From an uncultured archaeon (lineage in GTDB: Archaea > Thermoproteota > Nitrososphaeria_A > Caldarchaeales > Wolframiiraptoraceae): a stretch of 64,000 nucleotides of DNA. The stretch spans positions 64,001-128,000 of the forward strand of contig CALKCF010000002.1 in the NCBI GenBank assembly GCA_938083505.1, written 5' to 3'. The notes beneath the pieces are model-generated. The model did not search any database. It saw only the letters and a list, made by a program, of their open reading frames with translations, and was not told where the DNA came from. Made by a program: the position numbers and the translations under genes. This document shows, piece by piece, positions 2,976 through 62,385 of the stretch (within the stretch, counting starts at the first letter, position 1; each line of letters opens with the position of its first letter).

Positions 2976-3231
2976 TATCAAACACCCAAAATTTCGCTCA
3001 TGTAACATGTGGAAGAAAGAATTCGTCTTTCTTTATTCAATAACGACCGCCTGTCATTTACGGCAAATTTTCTCGAATGATTTAAATATATCTTTAAACG
3101 CGGGGTAAAAAAAATTGATTATTAAGACGAAAAGTAAACGAATGTATGCGACCTTAGATGCCTCTTCAAAGATGTCCATAAACTTTAAAAACAAGATGTC
3201 GGTGTAGTTTTCAATACGACGGTGGGTTAAT

Positions 3232-3372: not shown

Positions 3373-3388
3373 CGCTTGGGGTAATAAC

Positions 3389-3970: not shown

Positions 3971-5271
3971 GGATAAACCCTTGCGGGCGTCCTCGGAAAT
4001 AGCGTGACGCTCCTGATATGTGTCATGCCAAGCAGCCACCAAAGCATCCTTTCCAAGCCGAGACCGAAGCCGCTATGTGGTACCGATCCATACTTCCTTA
4101 AATCTAGGTACCACTCATAGTCTGAAGGGTTAAGGCCAGCCTCCTTGATTCGCTGGACGAGTAGCTCGTAATCGTGAATCCTTTGACCTCCGCCAACTAT
4201 CTCACCATAACCTCCAGGTGCCAGAAGGTCAGCACTGAGCGTAACCCTTGGGTCCGATGGGTCGGGCATGTGGTAGAAAGCCTTTGTCTCTTTGGGGTAA
4301 TGAGTGACGAAAAATGGCTTATCGAATTCCTTGGAAAGCTCCCTCTCCTCGTCGGCTCCAAGATCTTGCCCCCATTCTATGTTGAAACCTTTGTTTTTCA
4401 GAATCTCTAACACCTCGGCATACTTTATTCTAGGGTAGGGAGGTTCTGCGATCGAAGGGTCTATACTCTTCCCCAAAATCTTGAGGCATGGTTCAGCAGA
4501 CTCCGCCAATGCCTTGATGGTTTCGCCGACGAGCTTTTCAACAATCACCATCATGTCCTCCAGCGTAGCGTTGGCCATCTCAGCCTCAACGTGCCAAAAC
4601 TCGGTTAGATGTCTCCTAGTTCTGCTGAGTTCAGCCCTGAAGCTAGGCTGTATCGTGTAAACCTTCTCTAACCCGAATATCGCTGCCTCTTGATAGAATT
4701 GAACACTCTGGGTCAAGTAAACGTTCTTGCCGAAGTAGTCTACCTTAAACAGCGTAGCACCACCCTCGACGGCGGCCGTTATGAACGTAGGACAATGGAC
4801 CTCAGTAAACCCATTCTTCCTAAACCATTCGTGAAGAAGACCGGTCAGTAATGCACGTATCTTCATTATAGCGGCGACCTTAGGGCTCCTAATGTGCAGG
4901 TGTCTGTTGTCCAGCAGGAACTTAATGCTGGCGCCGGGCTTTATGGGGAATTCAGCTAATGATTTACCTATGACCTTAAACGACCTACATTGGATTTCCG
5001 TTCCACCTGGCGCCCTCGGGTCCTTTTTTACGAGGCCCGTTACTATAACTGAGGATTCCCTTGTAACGTCTAAGGCTTCCGTAAAGTCTGTTTCATCAGT
5101 AAGCCCCCGCTTCACCGTAACCTGGATTGTTCCTGTGGAGTCTCTAAGCTCCAGAAAAACCAATCCTCCATGCATTCTTTTGTTCCTGACCCAGCCAAAT
5201 ACTTCGACTTCCTCGTTCTCCGGCACCCTAAATGCTTCAGTAATGTGCAACCTTCTGGCCAATTTGGGCAC
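3967..5271 (-). CDS. asnS: Asparagine--tRNA ligase
   Basis: OB-fold N-terminus, YLTQS, FRAELSRTRRHLTEF, DLLAPGGYGEIVGGGQR, PHSGFGLGLER. Confidence 0.9.
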   Translation of the reverse strand: MPKLARRLHITEAFRVPENEEVEVFGWVRNKRMHGGLVFLELRDSTGTIQVTVKRGLTDETDFTEALDVTRESSVIVTGLVKKDPRAPGGTEIQCRSFKVIGKSLAEFPIKPGASIKFLLDNRHLHIRSPKVAAIMKIRALLTGLLHEWFRKNGFTEVHCPTFITAAVEGGATLFKVDYFGKNVYLTQSVQFYQEAAIFGLEKVYTIQPSFRAELSRTRRHLTEFWHVEAEMANATLEDMMVIVEKLVGETIKALAESAEPCLKILGKSIDPSIAEPPYPRIKYAEVLEILKNKGFNIEWGQDLGADEERELSKEFDKPFFVTHYPKETKAFYHMPDPSDPRVTLSADLLAPGGYGEIVGGGQRIHDYELLVQRIKEAGLNPSDYEWYLDLRKYGSVPHSGFGLGLERMLWWLLGMTHIRSVTLFPRTPARVYP

Positions 5272-5317
5272 CCACCCCTAAAAGTTTAGGGCACGTTTTG
5301 AATGTTTCCAATAAAGC

Positions 5318-5713
5318 TTATAATACTTGGGACCCTTCCCTTACATCCCTTTCAGGGATTATCGGCGCTATGACATTTTCTGACTCAGCAGCCGCCAATA
5401 TCATACATTCGGATATCTCACCTCTAACAGTCTTCGGCTTGAGGTTCACCAAGAACACGAATTTCTTACCGATAAAGTGCTCTGGTTCATATATGTGGCC
5501 AAGGCCAGTTATCGCCTTTTTCTTGAAGAAGCCAAAGTTGACAAGCATCTTTATGAGTCTGTCAGTTCCGGTAACCCTTTCTGCATACTCGACTAGACCC
5601 ACCCTAATGTCGAACCTCTTAAACTCCGACATTTCAACCTGCGACAATTGACTTCGAACTTGTAGATTCCTAAATCGTTTAAAAAGATTACTTAGCAATG
5701 CCAACTTCAGCAC
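5318..5713 (-). CDS. Stand-alone tRNA-binding OB-fold protein (Trbp111/MetRS C-terminal/CsaA-like); true start probably near 5650
   Basis: F..FDIRVG.V, VNLKPKTVRGEISECMIL motifs. Confidence 0.85.
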   Translation of the reverse strand: MLKLALLSNLFKRFRNLQVRSQLSQVEMSEFKRFDIRVGLVEYAERVTGTDRLIKMLVNFGFFKKKAITGLGHIYEPEHFIGKKFVFLVNLKPKTVRGEISECMILAAAESENVIAPIIPERDVREGSQVL

Positions 5714-5731
5714 TCCACTTCATTAATTTCA

Positions 5732-5766
5732 ATTGTTATAAAAATTCGAAAAATTTTTATAACAAT
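5732..5766. promoter_or_regulatory. Perfect 15-bp inverted repeat; probable back-to-back BRE/TATA bidirectional promoter
   Basis: ATTGTTATAAAAATT-CGAAA-AATTTTTATAACAAT between divergent genes. Confidence 0.65.
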
Positions 5767-5794
5767 AAATTTGTATAAAATATAGTGAATAAAC

Positions 5795-5899
5795 ATGCCA
5801 AAGAAAAAGGCAAAGAAGACAAGTGCAAAAAAGAAGAAACGTACAAAAAAGGCCAAGGAGGAAGAAAAAGCACCAGAAACCCCTGCTGAAGCGGGATAA
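5795..5899 (+). CDS. 34-aa Lys-rich microprotein (histone-H1-tail-like composition); absent from the ORF track
   Basis: MPKKKAKKTSAKKKKRTKKAKEEEKAPETPAEAG*; TATA TTTATAA about 35 nt upstream; T-rich tract downstream near 5960-5970. Confidence 0.65.
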   Translation: MPKKKAKKTSAKKKKRTKKAKEEEKAPETPAEAG

Positions 5900-5983
5900 C
5901 CTACTACAAAGCATTCCAAGTACTAAACCGTTGAAGCCATCTCCTGATAATTTTACCTTCTTTTATTTTTTGTAAACTGACCT

Positions 5984-7049: not shown

Positions 7050-8576
7050 TTGATGAAATTTGAAGTAATTTCGACGAATTTAGAAGGTGTAAGGGTTGAT
7101 TCTCTCATTATTCAATTCTTTGAGGGTGCTGAGGTTCCAGAAGCTGTGGTTACGCTACCCGAGAGTATCAAAGAGGAGATAGAGCCCTCGATTGGGACAG
7201 GCGGCTTCAAGGCCAAGCTCGGTCAGGTGCTTCCAGTGTATCCAAAATCTGCGGACGCCATCCGCTGCTTTCTGCTATTAGGCCTGGGAAGTAGGAAAGA
7301 TTTCAGCCTAGAGGCTGTAAGGCAGGCTCACGGTTATGCGGCCATAAGAGCCAAGGAGATAGGCAGTAAGAGCATAACGGTGCCCATATTCAGCATACCT
7401 CCCTACACCGCTCCCGAGATAACTGCCAGCGTTGTCGAGGCAATAAACCTGGCTTTTTACAGGTTTGACAGGTACAAGTCAAAGGTCGAGGATGGTAAAT
7501 ATCCGGAGCTTGTCAGACTCGTGGCAGATCCGGACGTAAGGAATATGTGTGATGCAGCGGCCAATGAGGCCGCCATAGTCTCGGAGGCCGTAAAGCTTGC
7601 GAGGGACTTAACCAACATGCCAAGTAGTGATATACCGCCAAAAAAGATGGCGGAGATAGCGACCGAGGTCGGAATGGTAAGCGGTTTCTCTACAAAGGTC
7701 TTAGAGGCAGAGGTGCTTGAAAGAATGGGAATGGGAGGCATAGTGAACGTCGGGAAAGGTAGCTCCAACCCGCCGGTCTTGATAATCATGAAGTACGACG
7801 GTGGCGGCGATACTTATGTGGTCGTAGGGAAAGGTGTGGTGTTCGATAGCGGAGGTATATCCCTAAAGCCGTCGGAGAAGATGGAGGAGATGAAGTATGA
7901 CAAAGCGGGCGCAGCCGCAGTCATCGCACTCATGAAGGCGGTAGCGGAACTTAAGCTTCCCGTAAGGCTAATAGGTATAGTGCCCGCCGTCGAAAACCTG
8001 CCAAGTAGCAACGCACTTAAGCCCGGCGATATAATAAGATTCAGAAACGGAAAGACTGCGGAGATTATAAGCACGGATGCGGAGGGTAGGTTGATACTTG
8101 CGGACGCTCTTGCCTACGCATCCGAGATGCGACCAAAGGTCATAGTAGACTTGGCAACACTGACCGGTGCCTGCGTTATAGCCCTCGGAACGCATGCAAG
8201 TGGCTTATTCAGCAACAACGACGAGCTAGCTGAGGCGCTTATAAAGGCAGGAGAAAAGACTGGAGAGAGACTTTGGAGACTTCCGCTCTGGAAGGATTAC
8301 TTCGAGCAGATAAAGAGCGATGTGGCTGATATGAAGAACGTCGGCGGTAGAGCCGCAGGCGCGATAACCGCGGCAGCCTTCCTGATGAACTTTGTAGAGG
8401 GGAACATACCTTGGGCCCATATAGACATAGCTGGGACTGCATGGACCCAAGAATCGTCGCCAGAGAAGAGCTACATACCGAAAGGTGCTACAGGCGTTGG
8501 TGTTAGATTACTCGTCGAATTCCTGAAGTCGGAGATTAAACGAGTTAAGCCTTACCCATCGGATGCCAACACTTAA
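7050..8576 (+). CDS. pepA: Leucyl aminopeptidase (M17)
   Basis: VGKGVVFDSGG, MKYDKAG, STDAEGRL, ATLTGA, WAHIDIAG. Confidence 0.93.
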   Translation: MMKFEVISTNLEGVRVDSLIIQFFEGAEVPEAVVTLPESIKEEIEPSIGTGGFKAKLGQVLPVYPKSADAIRCFLLLGLGSRKDFSLEAVRQAHGYAAIRAKEIGSKSITVPIFSIPPYTAPEITASVVEAINLAFYRFDRYKSKVEDGKYPELVRLVADPDVRNMCDAAANEAAIVSEAVKLARDLTNMPSSDIPPKKMAEIATEVGMVSGFSTKVLEAEVLERMGMGGIVNVGKGSSNPPVLIIMKYDGGGDTYVVVGKGVVFDSGGISLKPSEKMEEMKYDKAGAAAVIALMKAVAELKLPVRLIGIVPAVENLPSSNALKPGDIIRFRNGKTAEIISTDAEGRLILADALAYASEMRPKVIVDLATLTGACVIALGTHASGLFSNNDELAEALIKAGEKTGERLWRLPLWKDYFEQIKSDVADMKNVGGRAAGAITAAAFLMNFVEGNIPWAHIDIAGTAWTQESSPEKSYIPKGATGVGVRLLVEFLKSEIKRVKPYPSDANT

Positions 8577-8657
8577 ATTATGCTGGAGACCTGAGAATTT
8601 TTGCCTAATAAAAGGCGTGTTTAGTCGTCTGGACCTGTGTTTGTAGGTGGACTGAGG

Positions 8658-11402
8658 TTGCATAGGGTCGCGGTCATAGATTACGATTTCTGTCAGCCAA
8701 CCAAGTGCGGCCAGCCCTGCATATCATTCTGCCCGCCCGTGAGGAATAAGATAGAGGCCATCAAGCTCGGTGAGAAGGGATTTCCAGTAATTAACGAAGT
8801 GCTGTGTATTGGGTGCGGTATATGCCTCGACCCGAACACACCAGTGGTAACAGAGGCTGGTTTGAAGCCCATTAGAGAGGTTAAGGTAGGCGACAAAGTA
8901 CTCACACATAAAGGAAGGTTTAGGACTGTTCTCTCAAAAAGCGTCAGGCTGTATACCGGCCCCCTCTACAGAATAGAGGTACATGGTATACCGGACCCGA
9001 TACTGCTAACCGAGGATCATCCTTTACTCGTCGCTTCAAAGAACCAAGAAGCGGATGATTTTACGTTTGCCTGGAAAACCCCGCCCGAACTGAAAGAAGG
9101 CGATTACCTTTGTGCTCCAATAGTTACAAACGAAGGTTGTTTAGGGCAGCAAGAACAGCTCACTATCACTACCTCAGGAGTGCTAGCCCAATCGTTATCC
9201 TTTGAATTGACGTTCAAGCTCGGTATAATATTCGGTTATTACCTTGCCAGGGGGTCTGTAGAGCGTGAAAAAGTCGTATTTAGATTCGAAAGGGAGGGTA
9301 TGGTTAAAAAGGCAGAGGAGCTTCTAGAGAAATGCTTCGGTGTGAAAGTCATCCAGAAAGGCCCCAGATCGTTCTTTGTAAACTCGGAGCCTTTAGCCAA
9401 TCTGTTCCGCAACATTCTCGGAGGCTCGGAAGATTCTAAGAGGATACCAATGAGCTTCCTATCCGCATCCTTAGACTTCTTAAAAGGTTTCATCTTAGGA
9501 TTCATAGAGGCTGGGGATAATCGTACGAGTCCTTACATTTCCATGAATAATGCATACATCTTAAAGTTGATGGGAGCAAGGCTTAGCTTACCGTTATCAA
9601 TAAAAAAGGTCGCAAATGCTTATGCAATCTCACTCAGCGATAGGGGGAATGTATCATCAGGAGGTTACCAACTAAACATAATAAACTCAGTGAAGGTTGA
9701 GTTTGTGAAAGATTACCTAGTAATAAACTTAGAAGTCGAAGATGACGAGACATACAACGCCGTAGGGCTTATAGTTCATAACTGTGTTAAGAAGTGCCCG
9801 TTTGAAGCGATCACGATAGTTAACCTGAGCGAAGAGCTTGGTAGGGACATGGTGCACCAATACGGTGTGAATTCGTTCAGGCTTTACAGGCTTCCATACT
9901 TGGAGAAGGAAAAAGTCATCGGTATAATCGGAAAGAACGGCATAGGTAAGACCACAGCGTTGCAGATACTTGCGGGCCGTATTGTCCCGAACTTAGGCAA
10001 GTTATGCGAGGAGAAATCCCTACATGATGTTGCCAGAATGTTCAGGGGCTCACTTATACAAGATTATTTGACGAAGCTCGCCAGCGGTGATGTAAAAATT
10101 TCATACAAGCCGCAATACATCGACACGATACCAAAAGTCGTTAAAGGTAAAGTTGGCGCAATTTTGTTAAAGATTGGTCCCGAAGAGCGTGTTAACAAGC
10201 TAATAGACATGCTGGAGCTCCGCAACCTATTGGATAGGGATGTTTCTGTACTTAGCGGCGGTGAGCTCCAACGCCTTGCGATAGCGGCTTGCCTTGCAAG
10301 GGATGCTAATGCGTTCATACTAGACGAGCCGACCAGCTTCCTTGATATAAAGCAAAGGTTTAGGATAGCTTCAGTAATCAGGGAGCGCGCGCGGGAGGGC
10401 ATGGCCCTCGTATCTGACCATGACCTCGCGGTTCTTGACTATATATCGGATAAGGTTTTCGTGTTTTACGGCGAGCCAGGGGTATACGGCATCGTCGCAG
10501 GCCCTTATGGTGTTAGGGAGGGCATAAATATATTCATAGAAGGATACATACCTGACGAGAATGTAAGGTTTAGGAGTGAAAGGATATTGTTCCAGCTGAG
10601 GCCTCCAACGGAGGCTTATGAAGAGGGTTACTTAAGGCTCTACTGGCCGAGCATGACAAAAACCTATGATGTCTTTAGGCTGGAGGTCGAAGAGGGCTAT
10701 GCATATCCTGGCGAGGTGATCGGTATAGTGGGTCCAAACGGTATAGGTAAAACAACCTTCATAAAAATATTGGCGGGCATCGAGAAGGCTGATGCGGAGT
10801 TTCAGTTACCTTATAGGACGATAAGTTACAAGCCACAGTATCCAGAGATAAAGGACGAGAAAGTTGAAGTCGTTCTTAAAGAAGCTGCTGGAAGCAAGTT
10901 CAATACCGACCTTTACCAATCAGAGCTGATTAGAGCATTGGGTCTACATAAGATACTTGAAAGGAATGTTAGAGAGCTGAGTGGTGGCGAGCTCCAGAAG
11001 GTTGCAATAGCTGAGGCCCTTTCAAAGGATGCTGAAATTTACCTGATAGACGAACCGAGCGCGTACCTGGACGTCGAAGAAAGGTATACAGTCGCAAAGT
11101 TGCTGAAGAGGATAACACGCGAAAGGCAGGCCCATACATTCCTCGTTGAGCATGACCTTATGGTATTAGACTTTGCATCAAGCAGATTGATGGTTTTCTC
11201 GGGCGAGCCGGGTATCAGCGGACATGCCAGCAAACCCATGGACCTTAGGTCAGGGTTCAACGCTTTTCTAAAAGATATGGGTGTCACATTCAGGAGGGAC
11301 CAACAGACGTTCAGGCCGAGAGCGAACAAGCCCGATTCTAGATTGGACAAACAACAAAAAGCGATCGGTGAGTATTACTATCCAGTACCGACCTCGGAGT
11401 AA
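8658..11402 (+). CDS. Ribosome recycling ATPase ABCE1/RLI, intein-containing
   Basis: N-terminal CX4CX3CX3CP and CIGCGI|CVKKCPF Fe-S motifs; two ABC domains (GKNGIGKT, GPNGIGKT, LSGGELQ twice); TFRRD/RPRANK tail; likely TTG start at 8658. Confidence 0.95.
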   Translation: MHRVAVIDYDFCQPTKCGQPCISFCPPVRNKIEAIKLGEKGFPVINEVLCIGCGICLDPNTPVVTEAGLKPIREVKVGDKVLTHKGRFRTVLSKSVRLYTGPLYRIEVHGIPDPILLTEDHPLLVASKNQEADDFTFAWKTPPELKEGDYLCAPIVTNEGCLGQQEQLTITTSGVLAQSLSFELTFKLGIIFGYYLARGSVEREKVVFRFEREGMVKKAEELLEKCFGVKVIQKGPRSFFVNSEPLANLFRNILGGSEDSKRIPMSFLSASLDFLKGFILGFIEAGDNRTSPYISMNNAYILKLMGARLSLPLSIKKVANAYAISLSDRGNVSSGGYQLNIINSVKVEFVKDYLVINLEVEDDETYNAVGLIVHNCVKKCPFEAITIVNLSEELGRDMVHQYGVNSFRLYRLPYLEKEKVIGIIGKNGIGKTTALQILAGRIVPNLGKLCEEKSLHDVARMFRGSLIQDYLTKLASGDVKISYKPQYIDTIPKVVKGKVGAILLKIGPEERVNKLIDMLELRNLLDRDVSVLSGGELQRLAIAACLARDANAFILDEPTSFLDIKQRFRIASVIRERAREGMALVSDHDLAVLDYISDKVFVFYGEPGVYGIVAGPYGVREGINIFIEGYIPDENVRFRSERILFQLRPPTEAYEEGYLRLYWPSMTKTYDVFRLEVEEGYAYPGEVIGIVGPNGIGKTTFIKILAGIEKADAEFQLPYRTISYKPQYPEIKDEKVEVVLKEAAGSKFNTDLYQSELIRALGLHKILERNVRELSGGELQKVAIAEALSKDAEIYLIDEPSAYLDVEERYTVAKLLKRITRERQAHTFLVEHDLMVLDFASSRLMVFSGEPGISGHASKPMDLRSGFNAFLKDMGVTFRRDQQTFRPRANKPDSRLDKQQKAIGEYYYPVPTSE
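8823..9782 (+). mobile_element. Class-1 intein (320 aa) with degenerate LAGLIDADG endonuclease region
   Basis: Block A CLDPNTPV, block B LTEDHP, blocks F/G VINLEVEDDETYNAVGLIVHN followed by Cys+1; removal restores CIGCGICVKKCPF. Confidence 0.95.
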
Positions 11403-11451
11403 TTATTTTAGGATAGGAAAAATTAAATATTTTTAAGTTTAGAGCCAGAGC

Positions 11452-19082: not shown

Positions 19083-19916
19083 TTGGTACGCAAAAGTCAA
19101 CATAAGCAGACCACTTTTGAGATAATAAGCGTCGGAAATGAGTTGCTAATAGGCAAGGTTGTCAACACGAACGCTAGTTGGTTGGCTAAAAGGATTACAG
19201 AGATCGGCGGATTTGTTAGGAGGATTACGGACGTCAGGGATGATCTGTCTGAGATTTCTTCGGCTGTGAAGGAGGCACTAAAGAGGGGTACGAAATGGAT
19301 AATAACGAGCGGTGGCCTCGGGCCAACCTTTGACGATATGACGCTAAGCGGTGTTGCTAAGGCTGTAAAGAGGCCGTTAAAGCTAAACAAGCGAGCCTAT
19401 CAGATGATATTTGAGAAGTACAAGGAGATGTTCGAGCGCGGCATCCTCAAGAGCTTAGACATAACACCAGAGCGAAGGAAGATGGCCGAGCTCCCTACAG
19501 GCGCCATTCCGTTACAGAATCGGGTGGGTACAGCACCGGGTGTGCTTATAAAATTCGGCCGTCAAAGGATAGCTTGCTTACCTGGTGTTCCGGCAGAGTT
19601 AATAGACATTTTTGAAAACGAGTTGCTGCCGATAATTCAAAAATCGATAAAACGCACATACATGGTTGAGAGGGTGTTAATCGTAAAGGACGTTATAGAG
19701 TCTGCGTTAGCGCCAGTGATAAAGGAAGTGATGTCGAGGCATCCTACAATATACATAAAATCGCATCCAAAAGGTAGAGAGTCTGGCGCATCCATAATAG
19801 AGTTGCATCTGACAACAACCACTTCATCACCTGAGAAGATTGAGAAAGAGATGGAACAGGCCGTGCAGGAGCTAAGGGAAAAAGTAGCAGCATTGGGTGG
19901 AATGGCAGAGCAATGA
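19083..19916 (+). CDS. CinA-type molybdopterin-binding (COG1058) protein
   Basis: VGNELLIG, NTNA, SGGLGPTFDDMT, GTAPG, LPGVP.E, YIKSHPKG. Confidence 0.88.
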   Translation: MVRKSQHKQTTFEIISVGNELLIGKVVNTNASWLAKRITEIGGFVRRITDVRDDLSEISSAVKEALKRGTKWIITSGGLGPTFDDMTLSGVAKAVKRPLKLNKRAYQMIFEKYKEMFERGILKSLDITPERRKMAELPTGAIPLQNRVGTAPGVLIKFGRQRIACLPGVPAELIDIFENELLPIIQKSIKRTYMVERVLIVKDVIESALAPVIKEVMSRHPTIYIKSHPKGRESGASIIELHLTTTTSSPEKIEKEMEQAVQELREKVAALGGMAEQ

Positions 19917-21007
19917 ATCTAGATGAACCTACTATTTACGAAAAGTCTGAGGTAAGGGAGTTCTTGGTGCAACTCAGGACAGGGCTGGATGGTTTCTTAG
20001 AATGCATGAGTTCTGCCGAACATATTTCGCTCAACTTGCACCCTAATATAAGCTCTGTGGTGTTCTTAGGGGTCGGTGGCTCAGGAATAGTTGGCGACCT
20101 TTTATCCGATATTACGGCAAAATACAGGGATTTGCCAATCATCTGCCACAAGGACTACTCCTTCCCTTCCTATCTAACGAGGGGCACGCTGGTCGTTGCT
20201 GTCAGCTACTCGGGTAATACTGCTGAGACTCTCTCTGCGATGGTTAAGGCTTACGATGTAGGCTCGCCTATGTTTGCTATTACATCGGGCGGCTTGATGG
20301 AAAAAATTTGTAAGAAGTTAGGGATACCAATAGTCAAGATCAGAACGGGCCTGTTGCCGCGGATGGCCGTCCCTCATATGCTAGGTGCCGCAGTTTCGGT
20401 CTTAGCGAATGTCGGAATCATAAACACATCTTTCAATGAGCTTAGGAATGCCGTTGAGAGGGCGAAACGTACGCAGGAATCTGTGGAGGTTCATGTAGAA
20501 ACTGAATCGAATATAGCAAAGCAGGTTGCAAACAACATATGCAACAAAACGGCGTTCATATACTCTTACGGACCCCTCTCCTCCGTCGGTTATCGTCTAA
20601 AGTGCCAGCTAAATGAGAACGCTAAGATGCTTGCAGTGAACCAATGTTTACCTGAAATTTTACATAACGATATAGAGGGGTGGGATCCGGCGGCAGCTAA
20701 TTGCTTGGCGGCTGTCATGCTAAGGTGTAAAGATGAGCACCCAGCTATAAAAGAAGCGCTGGATAACATGGAGACAATTCTAGGTGAACGTTTCGGTATC
20801 GCTATCTCAAAAATAGTAAGCGAAGGTGACGATGCTACCAAAATCCTCTCCACCATGGTTATATGCGATTACGTAAGCCTCTACGCAGCAATTATGAAAG
20901 GGGTAGACCCTGCGAGGGTCGATAGAATAAAGCTTATGAGGGAGGGCATTGTAAGCAACGCGAAGTTGCTCGAACAAGTTGCGAGGAGGTTTGGAGTCGA
21001 ACATTGA
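19913..21007 (+). CDS. Bifunctional phosphoglucose/phosphomannose isomerase
   Basis: GVGGSG, SYSGNTAET, R.K.QLNENAK, PE..HN.IEG. Confidence 0.9.
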   Translation: MNLDEPTIYEKSEVREFLVQLRTGLDGFLECMSSAEHISLNLHPNISSVVFLGVGGSGIVGDLLSDITAKYRDLPIICHKDYSFPSYLTRGTLVVAVSYSGNTAETLSAMVKAYDVGSPMFAITSGGLMEKICKKLGIPIVKIRTGLLPRMAVPHMLGAAVSVLANVGIINTSFNELRNAVERAKRTQESVEVHVETESNIAKQVANNICNKTAFIYSYGPLSSVGYRLKCQLNENAKMLAVNQCLPEILHNDIEGWDPAAANCLAAVMLRCKDEHPAIKEALDNMETILGERFGIAISKIVSEGDDATKILSTMVICDYVSLYAAIMKGVDPARVDRIKLMREGIVSNAKLLEQVARRFGVEH

Positions 21008-36438: not shown

Positions 36439-36542
36439 GCGGGGGTTGCCAAGCCTGGTCAACGGCGCAGGGCTCAGATTCTTTATAATGATGGGAGACC
36501 CTGTCCCGTAGGGGTTCGTGGGTTCAAATCCCACCCCCCGCA
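36439..36542 (+). tRNA. tRNA-Leu(CAG) with 19-nt intron (36479-36497)
   Basis: GCGGGGG/CCCCCGC acceptor, CAGGG/CCCTG anticodon stem, long variable arm, GTGGG-TTCAAAT-CCCAC, A73; BHB with CTCA/TGGG helix. Confidence 0.92.
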
Positions 36543-40729: not shown

Positions 40730-41218
40730 TTGAGTAGCTACGGTAATCCTGTTTTTGGAATGGTTGTTTGGTACTTTGCTTACGGTGCTAACCTAAACAA
40801 AGATCTGATGAAGAAAAGGGTTGGCGGATGGAGGGATTGCAAGAGGGGCGTATTGGAAGGTTACAAGTTGAGCTTTGATGTTTTCTCAAAAAGCTGGGGA
40901 GGTGGTGTGGCGGACATAAGGGAAGAAAGCGGCTCCAAAGTTTACGGCGCAGTTTATCTACTTGATGAGGAGCAATTAAAGGTGCTTGATAGGTACGAAG
41001 GTGTTCCGAGCATTTACCTCAGAAGAAAAGTAATCGTGAAGACAGATGATGGTGAAGTTAAAGCCGTGACTTATGTCGCCGCTAACCCGAAACAGTACGT
41101 TAGACCCTCAGCAGAGTACCTAGCGATGATGCAAAAGGGCTTAAGACAGCATGGTTATGGTGACGAAGTTCTAAGAGAGGTTAGGAGGTTAGCTGAGGGG
41201 TTAGGATTAAAGATTTAA
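40730..41218 (+). CDS. Gamma-glutamylcyclotransferase (AIG2-like) family protein
   Basis: YFAYGANL, VYG, LDRYEG, PSAEY. Confidence 0.88.
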   Translation: MSSYGNPVFGMVVWYFAYGANLNKDLMKKRVGGWRDCKRGVLEGYKLSFDVFSKSWGGGVADIREESGSKVYGAVYLLDEEQLKVLDRYEGVPSIYLRRKVIVKTDDGEVKAVTYVAANPKQYVRPSAEYLAMMQKGLRQHGYGDEVLREVRRLAEGLGLKI

Positions 41219-41242: not shown

Positions 41243-41797
41243 GTGTTGAAGATAGCAGTTGACCTTGATGGCGTTTTAGCTGATAGCATATCTATGTGGT
41301 TGGCGATATGGAATGCATCTAAAGGTAGCTCGCTTACACTTAAGGACGTTAAATGTTGGGATTTTTGGAAGGAACTCGGAATTACTTCGAGCGAGTTTCA
41401 TAGAATATTCTACAAAGCATGGAAAAATTGGCAACTAATACAACCAACGGAGTTGGATCTTATCTCTAAGGTCACAATGTTGGAAGAGTTGGGTAGAGTC
41501 GATATAGTGACCTCAAGGCCAAAGAACACCAGGGCATATGTATTAAAGTGGTTGGAAAAGCATGGGCTCGGCAACAAGAGCGTGGTGTTCGTTAAGAGCA
41601 ATAAATCAGAGCTCGACTATGAGGTTTACATAGATGACTCTCCGGTCAACGCCGAGGAGATAGCGTCCGCAGGAAAGTACGTAGCCTTATATGACAGACC
41701 GTGGAATAGACATATGATAGATACTTATAGGATAAAGCGTGTCATGAACTTGGAGGAAGCCTACCTATTCATAAAAACGCATGTTTTAGGACGTTAA
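41243..41797 (+). CDS. 5'(3')-deoxyribonucleotidase-like HAD (NT5C type)
   Basis: DLDGVLAD, VTSR, YIDDSP, PWN. Confidence 0.82.
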   Translation: MLKIAVDLDGVLADSISMWLAIWNASKGSSLTLKDVKCWDFWKELGITSSEFHRIFYKAWKNWQLIQPTELDLISKVTMLEELGRVDIVTSRPKNTRAYVLKWLEKHGLGNKSVVFVKSNKSELDYEVYIDDSPVNAEEIASAGKYVALYDRPWNRHMIDTYRIKRVMNLEEAYLFIKTHVLGR

Positions 41798-41816: not shown

Positions 41817-43229
41817 TTATGAGCCCCACTCTGTGTGGAAAGTTCCAGACTTGTCGACCCTCTCGTATCCATGCGCACCGAAGCGGTCCCTTAAAGCCTG
41901 TATGAGATTTGCTGGCAGACGTTCGCGTCTAAAACAATCGAAGTAGTCTAAGGCAGAAGATATTGCAGGGCAGGGGATGCCGGTAAGCTTTGCCGTACTT
42001 ACGAATGACCTCCATTCCGCTTGTCTATCACATAACTCCTTTGCGTATGTAGTGTCAAGTAGAAGATTCACAAGCTCAGGTCTTCTGGAGTAAACGTCCA
42101 TTATCATGTTAAGCAACCTCGCCCTTATGATACATCCGCCTCTCCATACTTTGGCCACTTCCCACAACTTTGGGACATAGCCAAACTCCTTTGATGCCAC
42201 AGATATTAGGGACATTCCTTGAGCGAAGGCTACGAGCATTGTGCAGTGCAACGACGACCTTGCTGCACTTATAATAGACGATTTGTCTACATTAGGTTTT
42301 ACATCCATCATACATTTTATGATCTTCGATGCCGTAACCCTTTCTTCTTTCAACGCAGACATGTTTCTCGCAGAGACCGCGGCGTCAATCGTGGGCACAG
42401 GTACGCCTAAGTCCATTGCCGTCTGTGACGTCCACTTACCAGTTCCCTTCTGGCCTGCTTTATCCAATATTAGCTCGACAAGCGGTTTCTTAGTCTCATA
42501 ATCAATCTTACTCAAAACCTCAGAAGCTATCTCTAAAAGGAAGGAGTTTAGCTCTCCGGCGTTCCAATCGGCAAATATCTCAGAAATAGTTAGAGCATCT
42601 AACCCGAGCAACGTCGTAAAGGCATCATAGACCTCTGCTATGGCTTGCATTATTGCATACTCAATACCGTTGTGCACCATCTTCACGAAGTGACCGGCAC
42701 CACCAGGCCCCATGTAACCATAGCACGCATCATCCCCAACCTTTGCGGCAATCTTTACGAATACGGGCCTCATGATTTCCTCAGCCTCAGACGGGCCACC
42801 AGCCATTATACAAGGCCCCTTCAGCGCACCCTCCTCGCCACCGCTTATTCCAACACCCATGAAATGTATACCATGCTCTCCCAGCTTCTTCATTCTTCTT
42901 TCGGTATCTTTGAAGTACGAGTTACCACCATCTACTACTACGTCCCCCGGCTCAAGCCATACCATTAGCTGGCTAAGAAACTCATCAACAGCCTCACCAG
43001 CTTTAACCATCAATATTATCCTGCGGGGCTTCTCAAGAGATTTAACAAAGTCTTCTATAGAAAAGTATGCAAATATGTTTTTCCCCTTTGCTCTCTGTTC
43101 CATGAATGTTTTGGTCCTATCTGCAGACCTGTTATAAACGGATACCACGAACCCTTTATGTTCGATGTTGAGGGCAAGGTTTGCACCCATGGTTGCAAGT
43201 CCTATGAGCCCTACGTCTGACTCTCGCAT
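41817..43229 (-). CDS. gndA: NADP-dependent 6-phosphogluconate dehydrogenase, decarboxylating (long form)
   Basis: GLATMG, YNRS, MVKAG, DGGN, SGGEEGA, KMVHNGIEY, QKGTG, WRGGCIIR, RDRFGAH. Confidence 0.93.
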   Translation of the reverse strand: MRESDVGLIGLATMGANLALNIEHKGFVVSVYNRSADRTKTFMEQRAKGKNIFAYFSIEDFVKSLEKPRRIILMVKAGEAVDEFLSQLMVWLEPGDVVVDGGNSYFKDTERRMKKLGEHGIHFMGVGISGGEEGALKGPCIMAGGPSEAEEIMRPVFVKIAAKVGDDACYGYMGPGGAGHFVKMVHNGIEYAIMQAIAEVYDAFTTLLGLDALTISEIFADWNAGELNSFLLEIASEVLSKIDYETKKPLVELILDKAGQKGTGKWTSQTAMDLGVPVPTIDAAVSARNMSALKEERVTASKIIKCMMDVKPNVDKSSIISAARSSLHCTMLVAFAQGMSLISVASKEFGYVPKLWEVAKVWRGGCIIRARLLNMIMDVYSRRPELVNLLLDTTYAKELCDRQAEWRSFVSTAKLTGIPCPAISSALDYFDCFRRERLPANLIQALRDRFGAHGYERVDKSGTFHTEWGS

Positions 43230-43325
43230 AAATATATTTTTTTATCAAAGTAACAAAAAAGCTTATCGTATAATATATCAGTGGGGTTAACATAAAACTA
43301 TAATTCTGACCTTTCCACATGAATT

Positions 43326-44492
43326 TTGAGAAACATGGGTCAAACTGTTAGTAGCTTAGGTTACATCAACCAGATATTCCAAAATGTGGAGCTCGTTGAC
43401 GTGCCGCAACAGGAGAATTTCTATTACAGTCTTATGAAAAGCGGGGTGATAATTCCATCGGCTGAAGGAAGGTCTAAAGGCGCGCTAAGCATAGTGTGCA
43501 GCGAGATGGCCAAGATGAGGAAGGGAAAGATAATCGTGGACAGGAGCGACCTTGGCTTTCCAGGTAGGAGCATTTCTGAGGCGGCACCAATCCTGAAACA
43601 CAGATATGGTTATGTAAGCTTGCTAATAAACAGCGGCAGCGGTAAATCACTCATGCCCCTTATAGATGCTCAGAGTATGGCCCTTCATATAGAAAAGACG
43701 GGAGATGTCAAAAACTTTAGCATAGATGTCATGACTTCGGATGCCAACTCACCAATAGGGAAGCTCGGTGAAAAATATGGGAACGTCCTCATAATTAAAG
43801 GACGAGGGGAGAACAAGCGAACGGAGGGTGAAGCAAGGGAATTCCAATCCCATGGCATACTGGAGGACGTATTCATTCTGGGCAGCATGGTAATGCTTTA
43901 TGCAATGGCGGAGGCCATGAATGACGATAAGCCGGCTGAGAAGATACAGGATTATGTAAGCCCACTTTCGGTGGAGATATGTAAGATGGTGGACGACGTT
44001 ATAAAATCAAAATTCTTTGAATTTTTGGTGAATAATCTAGAAGAGAGGAAGGCCTGCTTCTTTGCTGGTCTCGGTAGCGGTCAGGAAGTTGCCAGAATGA
44101 CTGCAGTAAGGGTTGGACATGTAAAAAGAGCGATAGGTGACCACGTATACGTTGCGGGCGAGTCAAGCACACCAGCTCCAAGGGCTGGCGACATTTTGAT
44201 AGTTATTTCTCAAAGTGGTGAGACTGAGATAGTCCTAAGCTGGTGTAAGAACTTCAAAAGGCTGGGCGGCAAGATTGCCGCAATAATTGGGACGCCTGGT
44301 TCAACGCTACAATCGATTGCCGACGAATCTTATGTAATAAAGAGTGAAAGGGTTCCTGGCAAACCAAGCGACTTTTACGTCAAGGCTGCGTTCGCGCTTA
44401 GCCCTCTGCCCATATACTTGGTCAGTCGTATTGAGGAGCGTGGCCTGAAGTTACCAGAATACATACTAAAATGGTACCATTCAGTAATGTGA
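43326..44492 (+). CDS. Tandem-SIS-domain protein, 6-phospho-3-hexuloisomerase (HxlB)-like
   Basis: EGRS and NSGSG in domain 1; GES.TP...GDILIVISQSGET in domain 2. Confidence 0.65.
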   Translation: MRNMGQTVSSLGYINQIFQNVELVDVPQQENFYYSLMKSGVIIPSAEGRSKGALSIVCSEMAKMRKGKIIVDRSDLGFPGRSISEAAPILKHRYGYVSLLINSGSGKSLMPLIDAQSMALHIEKTGDVKNFSIDVMTSDANSPIGKLGEKYGNVLIIKGRGENKRTEGEAREFQSHGILEDVFILGSMVMLYAMAEAMNDDKPAEKIQDYVSPLSVEICKMVDDVIKSKFFEFLVNNLEERKACFFAGLGSGQEVARMTAVRVGHVKRAIGDHVYVAGESSTPAPRAGDILIVISQSGETEIVLSWCKNFKRLGGKIAAIIGTPGSTLQSIADESYVIKSERVPGKPSDFYVKAAFALSPLPIYLVSRIEERGLKLPEYILKWYHSVM

Positions 44493-44493
44493 G

Positions 44494-45528
44494 CTACTCC
44501 GCAACTTTTCTTATGGGTTTATCTAACATTTCATGGAACTCTCTCATCCAAGGCAATATATCCCTTCCAAGAATGCTAATGAACTTCTCCTCGTCCGGGC
44601 TGGCGCTGTGTATGTACACTATATCGAGCCTCAGCTTAAGGAATTCTGCAAGCTCCTTGAATATATCGTCCGGGTCCGTTGTTATGAGCCAAGTTCTTTT
44701 GATTTTTTCTATCTCCTCTGGACTGACATTTGCCTCCAACTCTCTAGGGTCGTAGAGCTTTTCTCGTTTTTCCCTCGGTATCGCTGTTGATGCCCAGAAA
44801 AGTGCAGAGTTTAACGCTCTATCGTAATCCACGTCGTATGAAACTTTGAATTCCATAGACTTTACGAGTGTTGACGGATCCCTTCCGGCCTCTATCGCAG
44901 CCTTCTCCATGGCACGAACTATCTCGTAATATTTCTCAAGACCCCTAGGATTTATCAGCATACCGTCGCAAAGCCTTCCGGCGATCTTCGCGACCCTTGG
45001 ACATGCCGACGCTACGTATATCGGTATCTTCATCTTTGGCTTTGTATAGAGCTTTGCGTTCCTCAGTCTGTAGTACTTTCCCTCAAAATTTACGAAATCA
45101 CCTTTCCAGAGCTCCAGTATTATCTTGATAGCTTCTTCAAGCCTATCAACCTTCTCCTCAAAGCCTGGCCATTCAAACCCCAGAGGTTTCTCGTTCATCG
45201 CATGACCTGTACCAACAGTCAGGAACACCCTACCAGGATACATATAGTCTAACGTTGCAAAAGCCTGGGCAACGATTGCCGGATGATACCTGAACATCGG
45301 TGTGGTTACAGCAGTGCCTACTTGAACCCTCTTTGTTCTTTCTGCCACCGCTGCAAGCCAAACCCACGGAAAACCTGACTGTCCGCCAGTGTCACGCCAT
45401 GGATGGAAGTGATCGCTCGTAGCTATTATATCAAAACCCGCGACCTCTGCTCTGACTGCAAAGTCCAGCAGACGTGTCGGATCATATTGTTCCTGTGCCG
45501 CCCAATAGCCTAACCTGAGTGTCCTCAT
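44494..45528 (-). CDS. F420-dependent LLM oxidoreductase, Fgd (sugar-6-phosphate dehydrogenase) family
   Basis: AQEQY, SDHFHPW, GTAVTTPMFRYHPAIVAQAFAT, GTGHAMNE, EFKVSYD, YDP.ELE. Confidence 0.8.
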   Translation of the reverse strand: MRTLRLGYWAAQEQYDPTRLLDFAVRAEVAGFDIIATSDHFHPWRDTGGQSGFPWVWLAAVAERTKRVQVGTAVTTPMFRYHPAIVAQAFATLDYMYPGRVFLTVGTGHAMNEKPLGFEWPGFEEKVDRLEEAIKIILELWKGDFVNFEGKYYRLRNAKLYTKPKMKIPIYVASACPRVAKIAGRLCDGMLINPRGLEKYYEIVRAMEKAAIEAGRDPSTLVKSMEFKVSYDVDYDRALNSALFWASTAIPREKREKLYDPRELEANVSPEEIEKIKRTWLITTDPDDIFKELAEFLKLRLDIVYIHSASPDEEKFISILGRDILPWMREFHEMLDKPIRKVAE

Positions 45529-45632
45529 ACCTGCCTTACTATGAGCGAGTCAGACCTATTTAGTCTTGCTTATAAACTTGGCCAAATAATTAATATGCCG
45601 CTAAAAATGAGCTACTTGAATCAGGTGGGTCT

Positions 45633-46289
45633 ATGTTCGTGTTACTTTCGCATAAACTCAGCACCGCAACGCCTGTATATGCCAGGGGCCCAAGCCTTAC
45701 ACTGAAGCCCTTGAAGCAAATAAGCAAGGGCGACAGCAGTAACAGCTACCTAATAGAAATACCAAACCATTTGGGAACACATGTGGATGCGCCTCGGCAT
45801 TTCGATCCTTCTGGGCGCTCTATAGCGGATTACGGGATAGAAAGTCTAACATTTAAAAAACCGCTATTGCTTAACATACCGAAGCAAGATTCGGAGCTGA
45901 TTATGGCCGAAGATTTGGAAAGGCATGAGGACAAAATTATAGAGGCAGACATACTTCTAATAAAGACCGGTTTCCAGAGGTTTAGGTCATCTGACCCCCA
46001 AAGGTACAGCATGCACAACCCAGGCCTTTCCTCCAATGCTGCCAGCTACGTAGTTAAGAACTTTCCAAACCTTAGGGCCCTAGGTTTGGACACGATTTCC
46101 TTATCTTCTGTTGACCATAGAGAGGATGGTAGGCTTTCGCATAAGATATTGTTGAGCGGTCGGGATTTCTTTATTATAGAGGACATGGACCTTTCGAAGC
46201 TTACTGAAAGTCCAAAGATGGTGATGGTCGTACCACTCTTTATCGAAGGTATCGATAGCGCTCCTTGCGTCGTAATTGCCGAGGTTTAA
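45633..46289 (+). CDS. Cyclase/kynurenine formamidase-family metallohydrolase
   Basis: HLGTHVDAPRHF, LIKTG, GLDT.S, H..LL, IIED. Confidence 0.88.
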   Translation: MFVLLSHKLSTATPVYARGPSLTLKPLKQISKGDSSNSYLIEIPNHLGTHVDAPRHFDPSGRSIADYGIESLTFKKPLLLNIPKQDSELIMAEDLERHEDKIIEADILLIKTGFQRFRSSDPQRYSMHNPGLSSNAASYVVKNFPNLRALGLDTISLSSVDHREDGRLSHKILLSGRDFFIIEDMDLSKLTESPKMVMVVPLFIEGIDSAPCVVIAEV

Positions 46290-60472: not shown

Positions 60473-61513
60473 TTATCGCATCCTAAAAACTATTATGTTT
60501 CTCGTCAGACTCCCATGTACTTTTATCGCATAGGTTTCTAAGACGTCTAGACCATATACTTCTCCTAAGGGGATCATATCAATGTTTGAGGGTGAGGCCA
60601 TGCATACGCTACCACCCTTTACGAGCAGATCCACTAATTTCGATAGAAAATCTTCTAGCAAGCTAGTTAGCGATCCGGTTGGTATCGTCGTAGACCTGCC
60701 ATAAGGAGGGTCCGTCACGATCGAGTCAAAAACTCTCCTGAATGGCGCAACCCTCGCATCACCGTTTATTATATCGGGACCGCCGGGCGCGTAATGCTCT
60801 AAGTTTAGCCTCGCACCCTTACATATCCAATGCTTTATCTCCAATCCTACTGCCTCATATCCTAACAACCATGCCTCATTAAGTATTGAGGCAGAGCCGG
60901 CAAATGGGTCAAGTATTCTACCACCGGGCTTAACCCTAGCTAGGTTAACCATGCACCTAGCAATCTTAGGCTGAAGAGCAGAAGGTAACGTAAAGGGCCT
61001 CCTACCTGCTTTCCTGTCGTAGAACTCCTTCTTTTTCTTCTTTGCGACCGATAACCCGAAGAAGAGCTTATACGGTGTTGCCAGAACCACGAACTTTTTG
61101 TTAGGATTCTCTAAATTTACTGACACATGTTTCCCGCAATTTAAGAGAATTTTCCCTAACTCTATTTCAATTTTTTTTGTGTCGTGTTCTGCACCCCAAC
61201 ACCTTACGCACCTTATTTCGAACGTTTCTCCGTCGTCCAATAACTCGTGTAAAGGTATAGATTTTACGTATTCTATCAGCCCACACATATCCGTAGACTT
61301 CGCTATAAGCAATGCTGCTTCCTTAACGTAAGCAGAACGCTCAACGGTCATGACTGCACAATCTTTTGTGGTCTCAGTTACCCCAACACCCTTACATTCT
61401 AAAACAACATTTGAAGAACTATCAAATGTAGAGAGAATAGCCCTCAGTTCACCAAAGGACAGTTCAGGGTACTCGCCAGATAGTTGAAAGAAATATTGTG
61501 TTTTTTCTTTCAT
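60473..61513 (-). CDS. tRNA (guanine-10-N2) methyltransferase Trm11/TrmG10-like (THUMP + MTase)
   Basis: LSGE, VNLENP, RPF..P, AR.MVNL, DPFAGS, TDPPYG, VHGSLTR. Confidence 0.88.
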   Translation of the reverse strand: MKEKTQYFFQLSGEYPELSFGELRAILSTFDSSSNVVLECKGVGVTETTKDCAVMTVERSAYVKEAALLIAKSTDMCGLIEYVKSIPLHELLDDGETFEIRCVRCWGAEHDTKKIEIELGKILLNCGKHVSVNLENPNKKFVVLATPYKLFFGLSVAKKKKKEFYDRKAGRRPFTLPSALQPKIARCMVNLARVKPGGRILDPFAGSASILNEAWLLGYEAVGLEIKHWICKGARLNLEHYAPGGPDIINGDARVAPFRRVFDSIVTDPPYGRSTTIPTGSLTSLLEDFLSKLVDLLVKGGSVCMASPSNIDMIPLGEVYGLDVLETYAIKVHGSLTRNIIVFRMR

Positions 61514-62385
61514 AATTTTCGTAAGCACTCCGCTAACAGACCTGCTATAGACACGAAAGCGTACTTATTAGGGACGGCATCTGTAGCTATGATAACATCA
61601 GCACCCGATGATAGGATCTTCTTATCAGCATCGTCTACCATTATTGCATGAATACAACCGACAAGTATTCTTCTAGCCCCAGCAGACTTTAGGGTACTGA
61701 CTGATTTAACCATCGTGCCGCCTGTGCTTATCATATCATCAATCACCACAACGTCTCTATCTTTAACATCTATACCTTCCAACTCAATCTCGACAGTTCC
61801 TGTGTTGACGTTCCTCTTTGTCCTAATCACACCGTAATCAGCATTCAAAACCTTTGCAGCCGTTGCACTCATATACTCTCCCTTCTTTCCAGGCGCCAAG
61901 ATCATGGGGTTCTTCAGGTTCATTTGTAGGATATAAGAGGCAAGTGTACCAACAGCATCCAAGTTCTCGATAGGTATCGGCGATCTATCGATAATCCATG
62001 GCGCATGTATATTTACTGTTAATATTTTGTCCACACCAGATTGCTTAAGTATTTTTAATACAACGTCTATGCTTACCACTTCACCTTCTTTAAATCGCCT
62101 ATCCTGCTTAGCATATGCCAAATAAGGTATAACTACTACGACACTTTTGGCGCCTAGATCTTTTGCACCACTTGACAGAAGGCAAAGTTGAAGTATGTGC
62201 TTGTCCTGAGGTGGATGAGTACTCTGGAATATCACCACATTCTCATTTTCAACACTATCGACGTACCGAAAGTAAGATTCACCATCCGGGAATATCCTAT
62301 GTTCCAATTCCGTTAATCTAAGACCCAGTATGCTAGACACCTTATTCGTAAGTTCTACGGACGCTGGACCTGGGACCAGTTTCAT
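61510..62385 (-). CDS. prs: Ribose-phosphate pyrophosphokinase
   Basis: FPDGE, PYLAYAKQDR, VIDDMISTGGT. Confidence 0.92.
   Translation of the reverse strand: MKLVPGPASVELTNKVSSILGLRLTELEHRIFPDGESYFRYVDSVENENVVIFQSTHPPQDKHILQLCLLSSGAKDLGAKSVVVVIPYLAYAKQDRRFKEGEVVSIDVVLKILKQSGVDKILTVNIHAPWIIDRSPIPIENLDAVGTLASYILQMNLKNPMILAPGKKGEYMSATAAKVLNADYGVIRTKRNVNTGTVEIELEGIDVKDRDVVVIDDMISTGGTMVKSVSTLKSAGARRILVGCIHAIMVDDADKKILSSGADVIIATDAVPNKYAFVSIAGLLAECLRKL

Follow-up and report, generated by a model that had tools for sequence, protein, structure and literature searches.

Four adjacent genes in an archaeal genome fragment, a 64,000-nucleotide stretch of contig CALKCF010000002.1 of a Caldarchaeales assembly (the window), probably constitute an F420-linked oxidative pentose phosphate module that leads from glucose-6-phosphate (G6P) to ribulose-5-phosphate (Ru5P). 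The genes encode a 6-phosphogluconate dehydrogenase (Gnd), a protein with two SIS domains (tandem-SIS protein), an Fgd-like luciferase-like oxidoreductase (LLM) and a metal-dependent hydrolase of the cyclase family. Profile searches, residue comparisons with solved enzymes, gene neighbourhoods and the distribution of the genes among relatives point to this assignment. The host assembly comprises 1.154 Mb in 10 contigs and its completeness is rated 98.5%. The host is a hot-spring archaeon of Candidatus Terraquivivens; its archaeal origin is supported by an intron-sized tRNA match and by loci of 92-97% identity in MAGs (metagenome-assembled genomes) of this genus. A first-pass annotation of the window had described four adjacent genes in two divergent pairs, and the open reading frames (ORFs) lie exactly so: gnd and the SIS gene are divergent, the LLM and cyclase genes are divergent, and the SIS and LLM genes are convergent. 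The features of the cluster and the two related genes elsewhere in the window are the following:

41817-43229, minus strand: gnd, long-form (470 aa) NADP-dependent decarboxylating 6-phosphogluconate dehydrogenase (NF006765, TIGR00873)
43230-43325, no strand: AT-rich intergenic region between the divergent gnd and SIS genes, shared promoter space (sequence read directly)
43326-44492, plus strand: tandem-SIS sugar-phosphate-binding protein, 388 aa by ORF (PF01380; TIGR03127 on the C-terminal half only)
44494-45528, minus strand: Fgd-like luciferase-like oxidoreductase of the F420 class ('clade A' LLM), 344 aa, proposed hexose-6-phosphate (G6P) dehydrogenase (PF00296, TIGR03557)
45529-45632, no strand: intergenic region between the divergent LLM and cyclase genes (sequence)
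45633-46289, plus strand: cyclase-family metal-dependent hydrolase, 218 aa, candidate 6-phosphogluconolactonase (PF04199)
19913-21007, plus strand: archaeal bifunctional phosphoglucose/phosphomannose isomerase (PGI/PMI), probable supplier of G6P from fructose-6-phosphate (TIGR02128, PF10432, PF01380)
61510-62385, minus strand: prs, ribose-phosphate pyrophosphokinase, consumer of ribose-5-phosphate (PF13793, PF00156)

In the proposed pathway, for which substrates and activities are predicted throughout, PGI/PMI would make G6P from fructose-6-phosphate and the LLM would oxidize G6P to 6-phosphoglucono-delta-lactone, with transfer of the hydride to F420. The lactone would be hydrolyzed to 6-phosphogluconate by the cyclase-family metallohydrolase, and Gnd would catalyze the oxidative decarboxylation of 6-phosphogluconate to Ru5P with formation of NADPH. 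RpiA (contig C1) and Prs would then lead from Ru5P through ribose-5-phosphate to phosphoribosyl pyrophosphate. Electrons from F420H2 would be passed to NADP+ by Fno, and F420 itself is probably built from scavenged Fo via CofC, CofD and CofE. PGI/PMI and prs had been placed elsewhere in the window by the first-pass annotation and both were located by profile matches, PGI/PMI with 235 bits on TIGR02128 (cut-off 213.9) over positions 20012-20944 of the window (84012-84944 of contig C2). The same annotation had suggested the sequence of Fgd, a cyclase acting as lactonase and Gnd. The route has good support from genome comparisons, namely from conserved linkage, co-occurrence and a Nitrososphaera operon, while the status of the LLM, which is not an Fgd equivalog, and the failure to find an Fo synthase speak against it.

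Distribution and linkage of the cluster genes

The distribution of the genes was followed in 71 Caldarchaeales genomes from 15 genera and 4 families (designated by g and f numbers), in which clade-A LLMs were called at an identity of at least 65%. A clade-A LLM was found in 40 of the 71 genomes; all 40 also encode the tandem-SIS protein and 39 encode a long-form gnd. Among the 31 genomes without clade-A LLM, gnd is present in five, two of which are 66-84% complete. Transketolase occurs in 17/71 genomes, all from genera g2-g4, and never together with a clade-A LLM. Strong matches to 3-hexulose-6-phosphate synthase (HPS), an enzyme of the ribulose monophosphate (RuMP) pathway, are confined to family f3, genus g5, two g4 genomes, one g3 genome and four genomes of Candidatus Terraquivivens, and the canonical single-domain 6-phospho-3-hexuloisomerase (PHI) is encoded only in f3, g5 and the HPS-bearing g3 genome. 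No transketolase, HPS or canonical PHI was found in the 37 genomes of families f2 and f4, which include a one-contig genome rated 99% complete. Gnd is therefore the only recognizable source of Ru5P in these two families, and an enzyme that makes 6-phosphogluconate is required. All seven Terraquivivens genomes lack transketolase and contain RpiA. As the counts are phylogenetically structured, they were treated as a few independent lineages and not as statistics. The same groups appear in each of the gene trees of LLM, SIS protein, Gnd and cyclase. Three genomes of genus g2 in the same family (G175, G180 and G194) contain transketolase and a long-form gnd without clade-A LLM or tandem-SIS protein.

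The neighbourhood of the genes is conserved beyond this genome, as the first-pass annotation had proposed to check. Loci that are 92-97% identical at the LLM were found in metagenome-assembled genomes (MAGs) of Candidatus Terraquivivens, a member of the Caldarchaeales, formerly Aigarchaeota (PMC9246946), and the whole cluster with its flanks is syntenic in four Terraquivivens MAGs. Aigarchaeota SKYB10 carries gnd, cyclase, LLM and SIS genes in a rearranged order that matches the layout of a g13 genome; there, a gene with a LarA C-terminal domain adjoins gnd (L025:2335-3342). The cyclase gene is the divergent neighbour of the LLM gene in 11/11 Caldarchaeales loci inspected (L006-L008, L023, L025, L105-L108, L110 and L112), which represent genera g1, g6, g8, g9, g12, g13 and g15, and gnd adjoins the LLM gene in g1, g6, g13 and g15. 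The linkage of the four genes is not due to chance. In this genome gnd is flanked by genes for an NT5C-type 5'-nucleotidase (window 41243-41797) and a GGACT/AIG2-like protein (window 40730-41218), a synteny observed in this genus only.

The LLM-SIS pair is arranged tail to tail, with gaps of at most 30 nt in most of the loci read. It recurs on 16 contigs labelled Bathyarchaeia or Bathyarchaeota and two labelled Acidobacteria-like. Pelearchaeum and 'Thaumarchaeota' UBA141 carry it as well, with identities of approximately 70% for the LLM and 59% for the SIS protein. All four Bathyarchaeia genomes examined that carry the pair contain one long-form gnd 10-30 kb away, and a long-form gnd was detected in only 2/151 sampled Bathyarchaeia genomes. 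The tandem-SIS protein belongs to the same proposed module as the LLM and Gnd. In this genome the stop codon of the SIS gene lies 1 nt from that of the LLM gene (window 44490-44496), and the tail-to-tail order, with a gap of at most 30 nt or a short overlap, is common to two archaeal classes. Convergent genes cannot share a transcript, and for such genes this conservation is unusual. In Bathyarchaeia, as at L013 (neighbours at 2285-5913 and 8418-11423), genes for an exporter of the ABC-2 type, which comprises one ATPase and two permeases, and for an aldo/keto reductase precede the LLM gene on the same strand, and a group-4-like [NiFe] hydrogenase module with a maturation protease lies beyond the SIS gene.

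A related arrangement was observed in Nitrososphaera, where genes for an LLM, RpiA, a cyclase and a short-form Gnd follow one another in the same direction in at least 12 MAGs, together with a GH116/trehalase-like gene that was identified by a weak match (L039:5932-11588, L047-L058 and L078). The LLM of this run belongs to a different clade that is approximately 45% identical to clade A, and the cyclase is approximately 25% identical. The run independently supports a functional link between the LLM type, the cyclase family, 6-phosphogluconate dehydrogenase and pentose metabolism. The Nitrososphaera LLMs keep Glu109; the phosphate-pocket residues of FGD were not seen in them, in an alignment that is shaky in this region.

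Other routes to pentoses were searched for in the whole assembly. The first-pass annotation had noted the lack of zwf and pgl in the window, and neither zwf nor pgl (TIGR01198) was matched anywhere in the assembly rated 98.5% complete. Its corresponding remark on hxlA cannot be extended to the organism. No HPS (TIGR03128) was found in the whole assembly, but contig C6 ends (at 183,046) exactly where the HPS-bearing stretch of the congener G159 begins, of which at least 12 kb are missing here. A firm statement that the genome lacks HPS was for this reason rejected. In G159 the missing region (L104, G159:C2:171600-184200), which holds several housekeeping-type genes, includes a stand-alone HPS, an ADP-forming acyl-CoA synthetase, prephenate dehydrogenase and a fusion of chorismate mutase with an aminotransferase. 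For none of these is there a close match in the present assembly.

A side observation in the window is an intron-sized Rfam tRNA match of 104 nt at positions 36439-36542, on which ARAGORN was silent.

Properties of the predicted enzymes and F420 supply

The LLM matches the F420-dependent G6P dehydrogenase family TIGR03557, a model at the subfamily level, over its full length with 251.4 bits (cut-off 210.4). It could be aligned end to end with the solved structures of Rh-FGD1 (5LXE, 295 bits) and Mycobacterium tuberculosis (Mtb) FGD1 (3B4Y, 291 bits), and residues were mapped by pairwise HMMER alignment of the clade-A LLM to these solved FGDs, which was confident over the whole length. The catalytic dyad of the Mtb enzyme consists of Glu13 and His40, and N1 of F420 receives its proton from Glu109 (PMC12384609); three basic residues of FGD bind the substrate phosphate (PMC5352752). 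Glu13, His40 and Trp44 are kept in the LLM and are invariant across clade A. The changes relative to FGD are E109H, K198R, K259R, H260E and R283T. The phosphate-pocket trio consequently reads Arg, Arg, Thr, which retains two of the three positive charges, and an Arg or Lys at residue 282 is present in the Terraquivivens LLMs only. The His109/Glu260 state is invariant in 25/25 clade-A sequences and was not seen in the 73 nearest full-length representatives of 50% clusters, nearly all of which have Glu109. Phosphate-pocket columns read from a multi-family alignment with Nitrososphaera and 50%-cluster representatives were dropped, as residues from approximately 195 to 280 are too variable. Judged from its sequence, the LLM is close to FGD and is an F420 dehydrogenase of type B, but not a demonstrated Fgd. 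Of the earlier description as an Fgd-like F420 oxidoreductase, the family assignment by TIGR03557 stands and equivalence to Fgd does not, given the score on TIGR03554 and the E109H and R283T replacements.

Among the closest known systems is the mycobacterial route that starts with Fgd1 (EC 1.1.98.2; 3B4Y, and Rh-FGD1 5LXE). Fgd1 and the archaeal LLM share the LLM type B fold, the family TIGR03557, the Glu13-His40 dyad and Trp44. As in the mycobacterial sequence of Fgd1, Pgl and Gnd, it is proposed here that the product is handed to a canonical NADP-dependent Gnd, with F420H2 as a by-product. Unlike its mycobacterial counterpart, the Caldarchaeales LLM scores under the Fgd equivalog cut-off and has His109, Glu260, Thr283, Arg198 and Arg259; moreover, no Pgl homologue is found here and the tandem-SIS protein is the constant partner. 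The archaeal host also differs in that Fo synthase and zwf were not found in its assembly, so that the LLM would be the only, and not a second, G6P dehydrogenase.

Gnd had been annotated as a long-form NADP enzyme, and this assignment was confirmed by 634 bits on NF006765 (cut-off 413) and 617 bits on TIGR00873, both above the equivalog cut-offs. The C-terminal domain is complete, as PF00393 was matched over positions 1-290 of 290, and the best solved relative is the Geobacillus 6-phosphogluconate dehydrogenase 2W8Z (573 bits).

The membership of the hydrolase in the cyclase family was likewise borne out by 86.6 bits on PF04199 (gathering cut-off 23.1) and by an intact HxGTHxDxPxH metal motif, the residues of which are invariant in the alignment. 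With 46 bits, it scores far under the cut-off of the arylformamidase model TIGR03035 (223), which sets it apart from the kynurenine formamidase KynB. Its nearest solved relatives are the uncharacterized metal hydrolases 8HMO and 1R61, followed by KynB. Like KynB, isatin hydrolase, the esterase MGS0169 and trans-dienelactone hydrolase, it is a member of PF04199. Since this family includes a metal-dependent carboxylesterase and trans-dienelactone hydrolase (PMC5341072), and thus has precedents for the hydrolysis of both esters and lactones among cyclase-like metal hydrolases, lactone hydrolysis by the cyclase is chemically plausible. The classical His motif of the cyclase described here sets it apart from the MGS0169 esterase and the dienelactone hydrolase, both of which have a modified motif with Gln. 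The literature searches found no cyclase-family 6-phosphogluconolactonase, no sugar-lactone activity in PF04199 and nothing on PDB entry 8HMO. Whether the cyclase is the 6-phosphogluconolactonase is an evenly balanced matter.

The two SIS domains that had been reported for the SIS protein were recovered in the alignment and in an AlphaFold2 model (pLDDT 85). Translation of the SIS gene probably starts at the ATG at 43335; the resulting protein has 385 aa, like its closest database relatives. SIS phosphate loops are preserved in both halves of the protein, and the columns of the alignment have a mean identity of 76%. The HxlB model TIGR03127 matches residues 222-341 only, with 78.6 bits and thus below its cut-off of 160, while canonical PHIs of the same order reach 183-201 bits in open frames of 192-218 aa. 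PHI or HPS-PHI chains were the sole matches in a sequence search of the PDB, and a Foldseek search with the model retrieved GlmS-type tandem SIS isomerase domains with TM scores of 0.5-0.6 at approximately 13% identity. The protein therefore resembles HxlB/PHI in its SIS fold and in the sequence of its C-terminal domain, and the isomerase domain of GlmS and other phosphosugar isomerases in its overall two-domain architecture. It differs from HxlB/PHI by having two domains, a length of 388 aa instead of approximately 180-200 aa and an occurrence mostly in genomes without HPS, and from known tandem-SIS structures by the low identity. Among the 71 genomes its distribution follows the clade-A LLM and not HPS; 34 of the 37 genomes of the HPS-less families f2 and f4 encode it. 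The idea that the organism needs the protein as its PGI was rejected, given that 69/71 Caldarchaeales genomes, this one among them, contain PGI/PMI. The tandem-SIS protein is probably a sugar-phosphate isomerase or a ring-opening enzyme acting on the substrate or product of the LLM. Any specific role can be named only tentatively, and the following order is preferred: a dedicated hexose-phosphate isomerase, PHI in HPS-bearing species, lactone ring opening and a non-catalytic sugar-phosphate binder.

Further full-length tandem-SIS proteins form a second clade, with an identity of 37-39%, which is encoded in 21/151 Bathyarchaeia genomes (for example at L091 and L094-L098), mostly without clade-A LLM. 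Its neighbours include BacA, the CCA-adding enzyme, IlvD/Edd, an IF-2B family protein, parts of an ECF transporter and an M50 peptidase; these neighbourhoods are unrelated and no functional lead was found in them in the Bathyarchaeia sample. At L091 and L093 a different LLM lies approximately 1.2 kb from the second-clade SIS gene, with an IlvD/Edd-family dehydratase adjacent.

The genes required for the later steps of F420 synthesis and for its use, cofC, cofD, cofE and fno, are present in the genome, each with a score over its cut-off. The check on F420 genes that the first-pass annotation had called for thus returned a split result, as Fo synthase (CofG/CofH) was not found in the assembly, and the F420 pathway is only half present in this genome. 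The simplest reading of the gene content is that Fo is taken up and then converted to F420, which suggests a dependence of the lineage on scavenged Fo. The order-wide lack of CofH conflicts with a published table, according to which F420 is self-made in Calditenuis (Beam et al. 2016, PMC4681859).

Alternative explanations

Several observations weigh against the assignment of the cluster to an F420-linked oxidative pentose phosphate route. The LLM reaches 311 bits on the Fgd equivalog model TIGR03554 and remains under its cut-off of 420 bits, Glu109 is replaced by His in all 25 aligned clade-A sequences, and Arg283 of the phosphate pocket is replaced by Thr or Ser in clade A. In the literature searched, no assay of any enzyme from this archaeal LLM clade was found. 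Bathyarchaeia genomes that carry LLM, SIS protein and gnd have no cyclase orthologue, and the SIS protein is without an assigned step, since PGI/PMI is near-universal (69/71). Neither CofG nor CofH was matched in the assembly of this genome. CofH was found in one Caldarchaeales genome and was not found in the other 70 of the 71, so that its absence here is not an assembly artefact, and the supply of F420 has to rest on a presumed uptake of Fo. 6-Phosphogluconate may also come from other sources, such as the G6P dehydrogenase of the Azf type, a short-chain dehydrogenase/reductase (SDR), or glucose dehydrogenase and gluconate kinase. Finally, stand-alone HPS with scores over the family cut-off is present in 4/6 Terraquivivens congeners, and the genus may make pentoses by more than the oxidative route.

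The last observation is the starting point for a cyclic dissimilatory RuMP pathway, in which HPS would fix formaldehyde on Ru5P, the tandem-SIS protein would be the 6-phospho-3-hexuloisomerase, and PGI/PMI, LLM, cyclase and Gnd would regenerate Ru5P and release CO2. This scheme contains the oxidative steps of the proposed module and adds a defined role for the SIS protein and another physiological purpose. It draws on the PHI-like C-terminal domain of the SIS protein, to which PHI and HPS-PHI chains are the sole PDB matches, and on the HPS-bearing congeners, a genus in which the tandem-SIS protein is found and no canonical PHI. Set against this are the SIS score far under the PHI cut-off, the two-domain structure and the position of HPS, which is unlinked to the cluster and lies among aromatic amino acid genes in G159; f2, f4 and the Bathyarchaeia sample also carry LLM, SIS protein and gnd without any HPS. 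We regard the cyclic pathway as improbable. A slightly poorer chance is given to the view that the LLM is not a sugar-phosphate dehydrogenase at all but has a different alcohol or a carbonyl compound as its substrate, or is a reductase that depends on F420H2 or an FMN enzyme. In that event 6-phosphogluconate would come from elsewhere, for example from gluconate and a kinase, and the linkage would reflect co-inheritance. The score below the Fgd equivalog cut-off, the clade-specific E109H/H260E swap with the loss of Arg283, the undetected Fo synthase across the order and the position of the Bathyarchaeia LLM behind the exporter and aldo/keto reductase genes are compatible with such a function, and the alcohol dehydrogenase Adf scores not far from FGD (255 versus 295 bits). 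These points are opposed by the retained Glu13-His40 dyad and Trp44, the positive charges preserved by K198R and K259R at two of the three pocket positions, the co-occurrence with gnd in 39/40 genomes, a distribution complementary to transketolase and HPS/PHI, the different LLM clade that sits with rpiA and gnd in Nitrososphaera, and the presence of cofC, cofD, cofE and fno.

The pathway could also be correct with a different enzyme, or none, at the lactone step. 6-Phosphogluconolactone is labile and might open spontaneously at hot-spring temperature, or the SIS protein might catalyze its opening, in which case the cyclase would be an unrelated amidohydrolase that shares the promoter region. 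Canonical Pgl is homologous to NagB, an isomerase/deaminase, and an isomerase fold can therefore yield a lactonase. The SIS protein is found in every clade-A genome, including the Bathyarchaeia without cyclase orthologue, and the characterized members of the family with the classical motif are amidohydrolases such as KynB and isatin hydrolase. Conversely, the cyclase gene adjoins the LLM gene at every Caldarchaeales locus inspected, across seven genera, and reappears in the Nitrososphaera run at approximately 25% identity; it is far below the arylformamidase cut-off (46 versus 223 bits), and ester and lactone hydrolases are known in its family. A cyclase without lactonase function is accordingly considered unlikely, though by no means improbable to the degree of the cyclic RuMP scheme. 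Similarly unlikely is the most far-reaching version of the oxidative module, in which Caldarchaeales lineages without transketolase and RuMP enzymes would obtain all pentose phosphate via the F420-dependent oxidative pathway, using a cyclase-fold metal-dependent lactonase, a new tandem-SIS reaction tied to the His109/Glu260-swapped Fgd clade and a deazaflavin precursor scavenged from neighbours.

Earlier predictions and significance

Haloarchaea possess an oxidative pentose phosphate pathway with Azf, an NAD-dependent G6P dehydrogenase of the SDR type, and Gnd. To our knowledge, textbook accounts let archaeal pentoses arise via the reverse RuMP or the non-oxidative pentose phosphate pathway, with the oxidative route known only in haloarchaea. 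The module proposed here resembles the haloarchaeal route in that it would lead archaea oxidatively to Ru5P and combines a conventional Gnd with a first enzyme other than Zwf. It differs in that the first enzyme is of another family and would use another cofactor.

The idea of the pathway, put forward for this window by the first-pass annotation, is itself not new. For Ca. Calditenuis aerorheumensis and thermophilic Thaumarchaeota, an oxidative pentose phosphate pathway was predicted to be complete except for the gluconolactonase, with F420 as the cofactor of G6P dehydrogenase (Beam et al. 2016, PMC4681859), and similar remarks are made in the N. evergladensis genome paper (PMC4084955) and in an F420 review, there as 'Thaumarchaeota?' (PMC8498797). 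The Calditenuis prediction concerns the same order and the same combination of an F420-dependent G6P dehydrogenase, 6-phosphogluconate dehydrogenase and a 'missing' gluconolactonase (PMC4681859). Unlike the present analysis, the three papers offer annotation statements in which neither a cyclase-family nor a tandem-SIS gene is named, and the complementarity with transketolase and RuMP enzymes is shown only here (PMC4681859, PMC4084955, PMC8498797). A biochemical study or a characterized archaeal Fgd was not found in the literature searches, and neither the assignment of the cyclase as lactonase nor the SIS partnership was found in the papers searched. The transketolase/RuMP complementarity, the rpiA-containing Nitrososphaera operon, the strict LLM-SIS co-occurrence, the clade-specific His109 and the order-wide lack of Fo synthase are new here.

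If the proposed functions are true, the LLM would be the first archaeal Fgd-type G6P dehydrogenase, with an altered acid/base pair, and the cyclase would represent a new non-homologous family of 6-phosphogluconolactonases that fills the 'missing lactonase' of published annotations. A function would also be provided for the widespread tandem-SIS family of Bathyarchaeia and Aigarchaeota, and a core biosynthetic pathway would be reliant on a scavenged cofactor head group. Judged from the genome data, the F420-linked oxidative route would be the only recognizable source of Ru5P in two whole families of the Caldarchaeales and is probably important in Terraquivivens.

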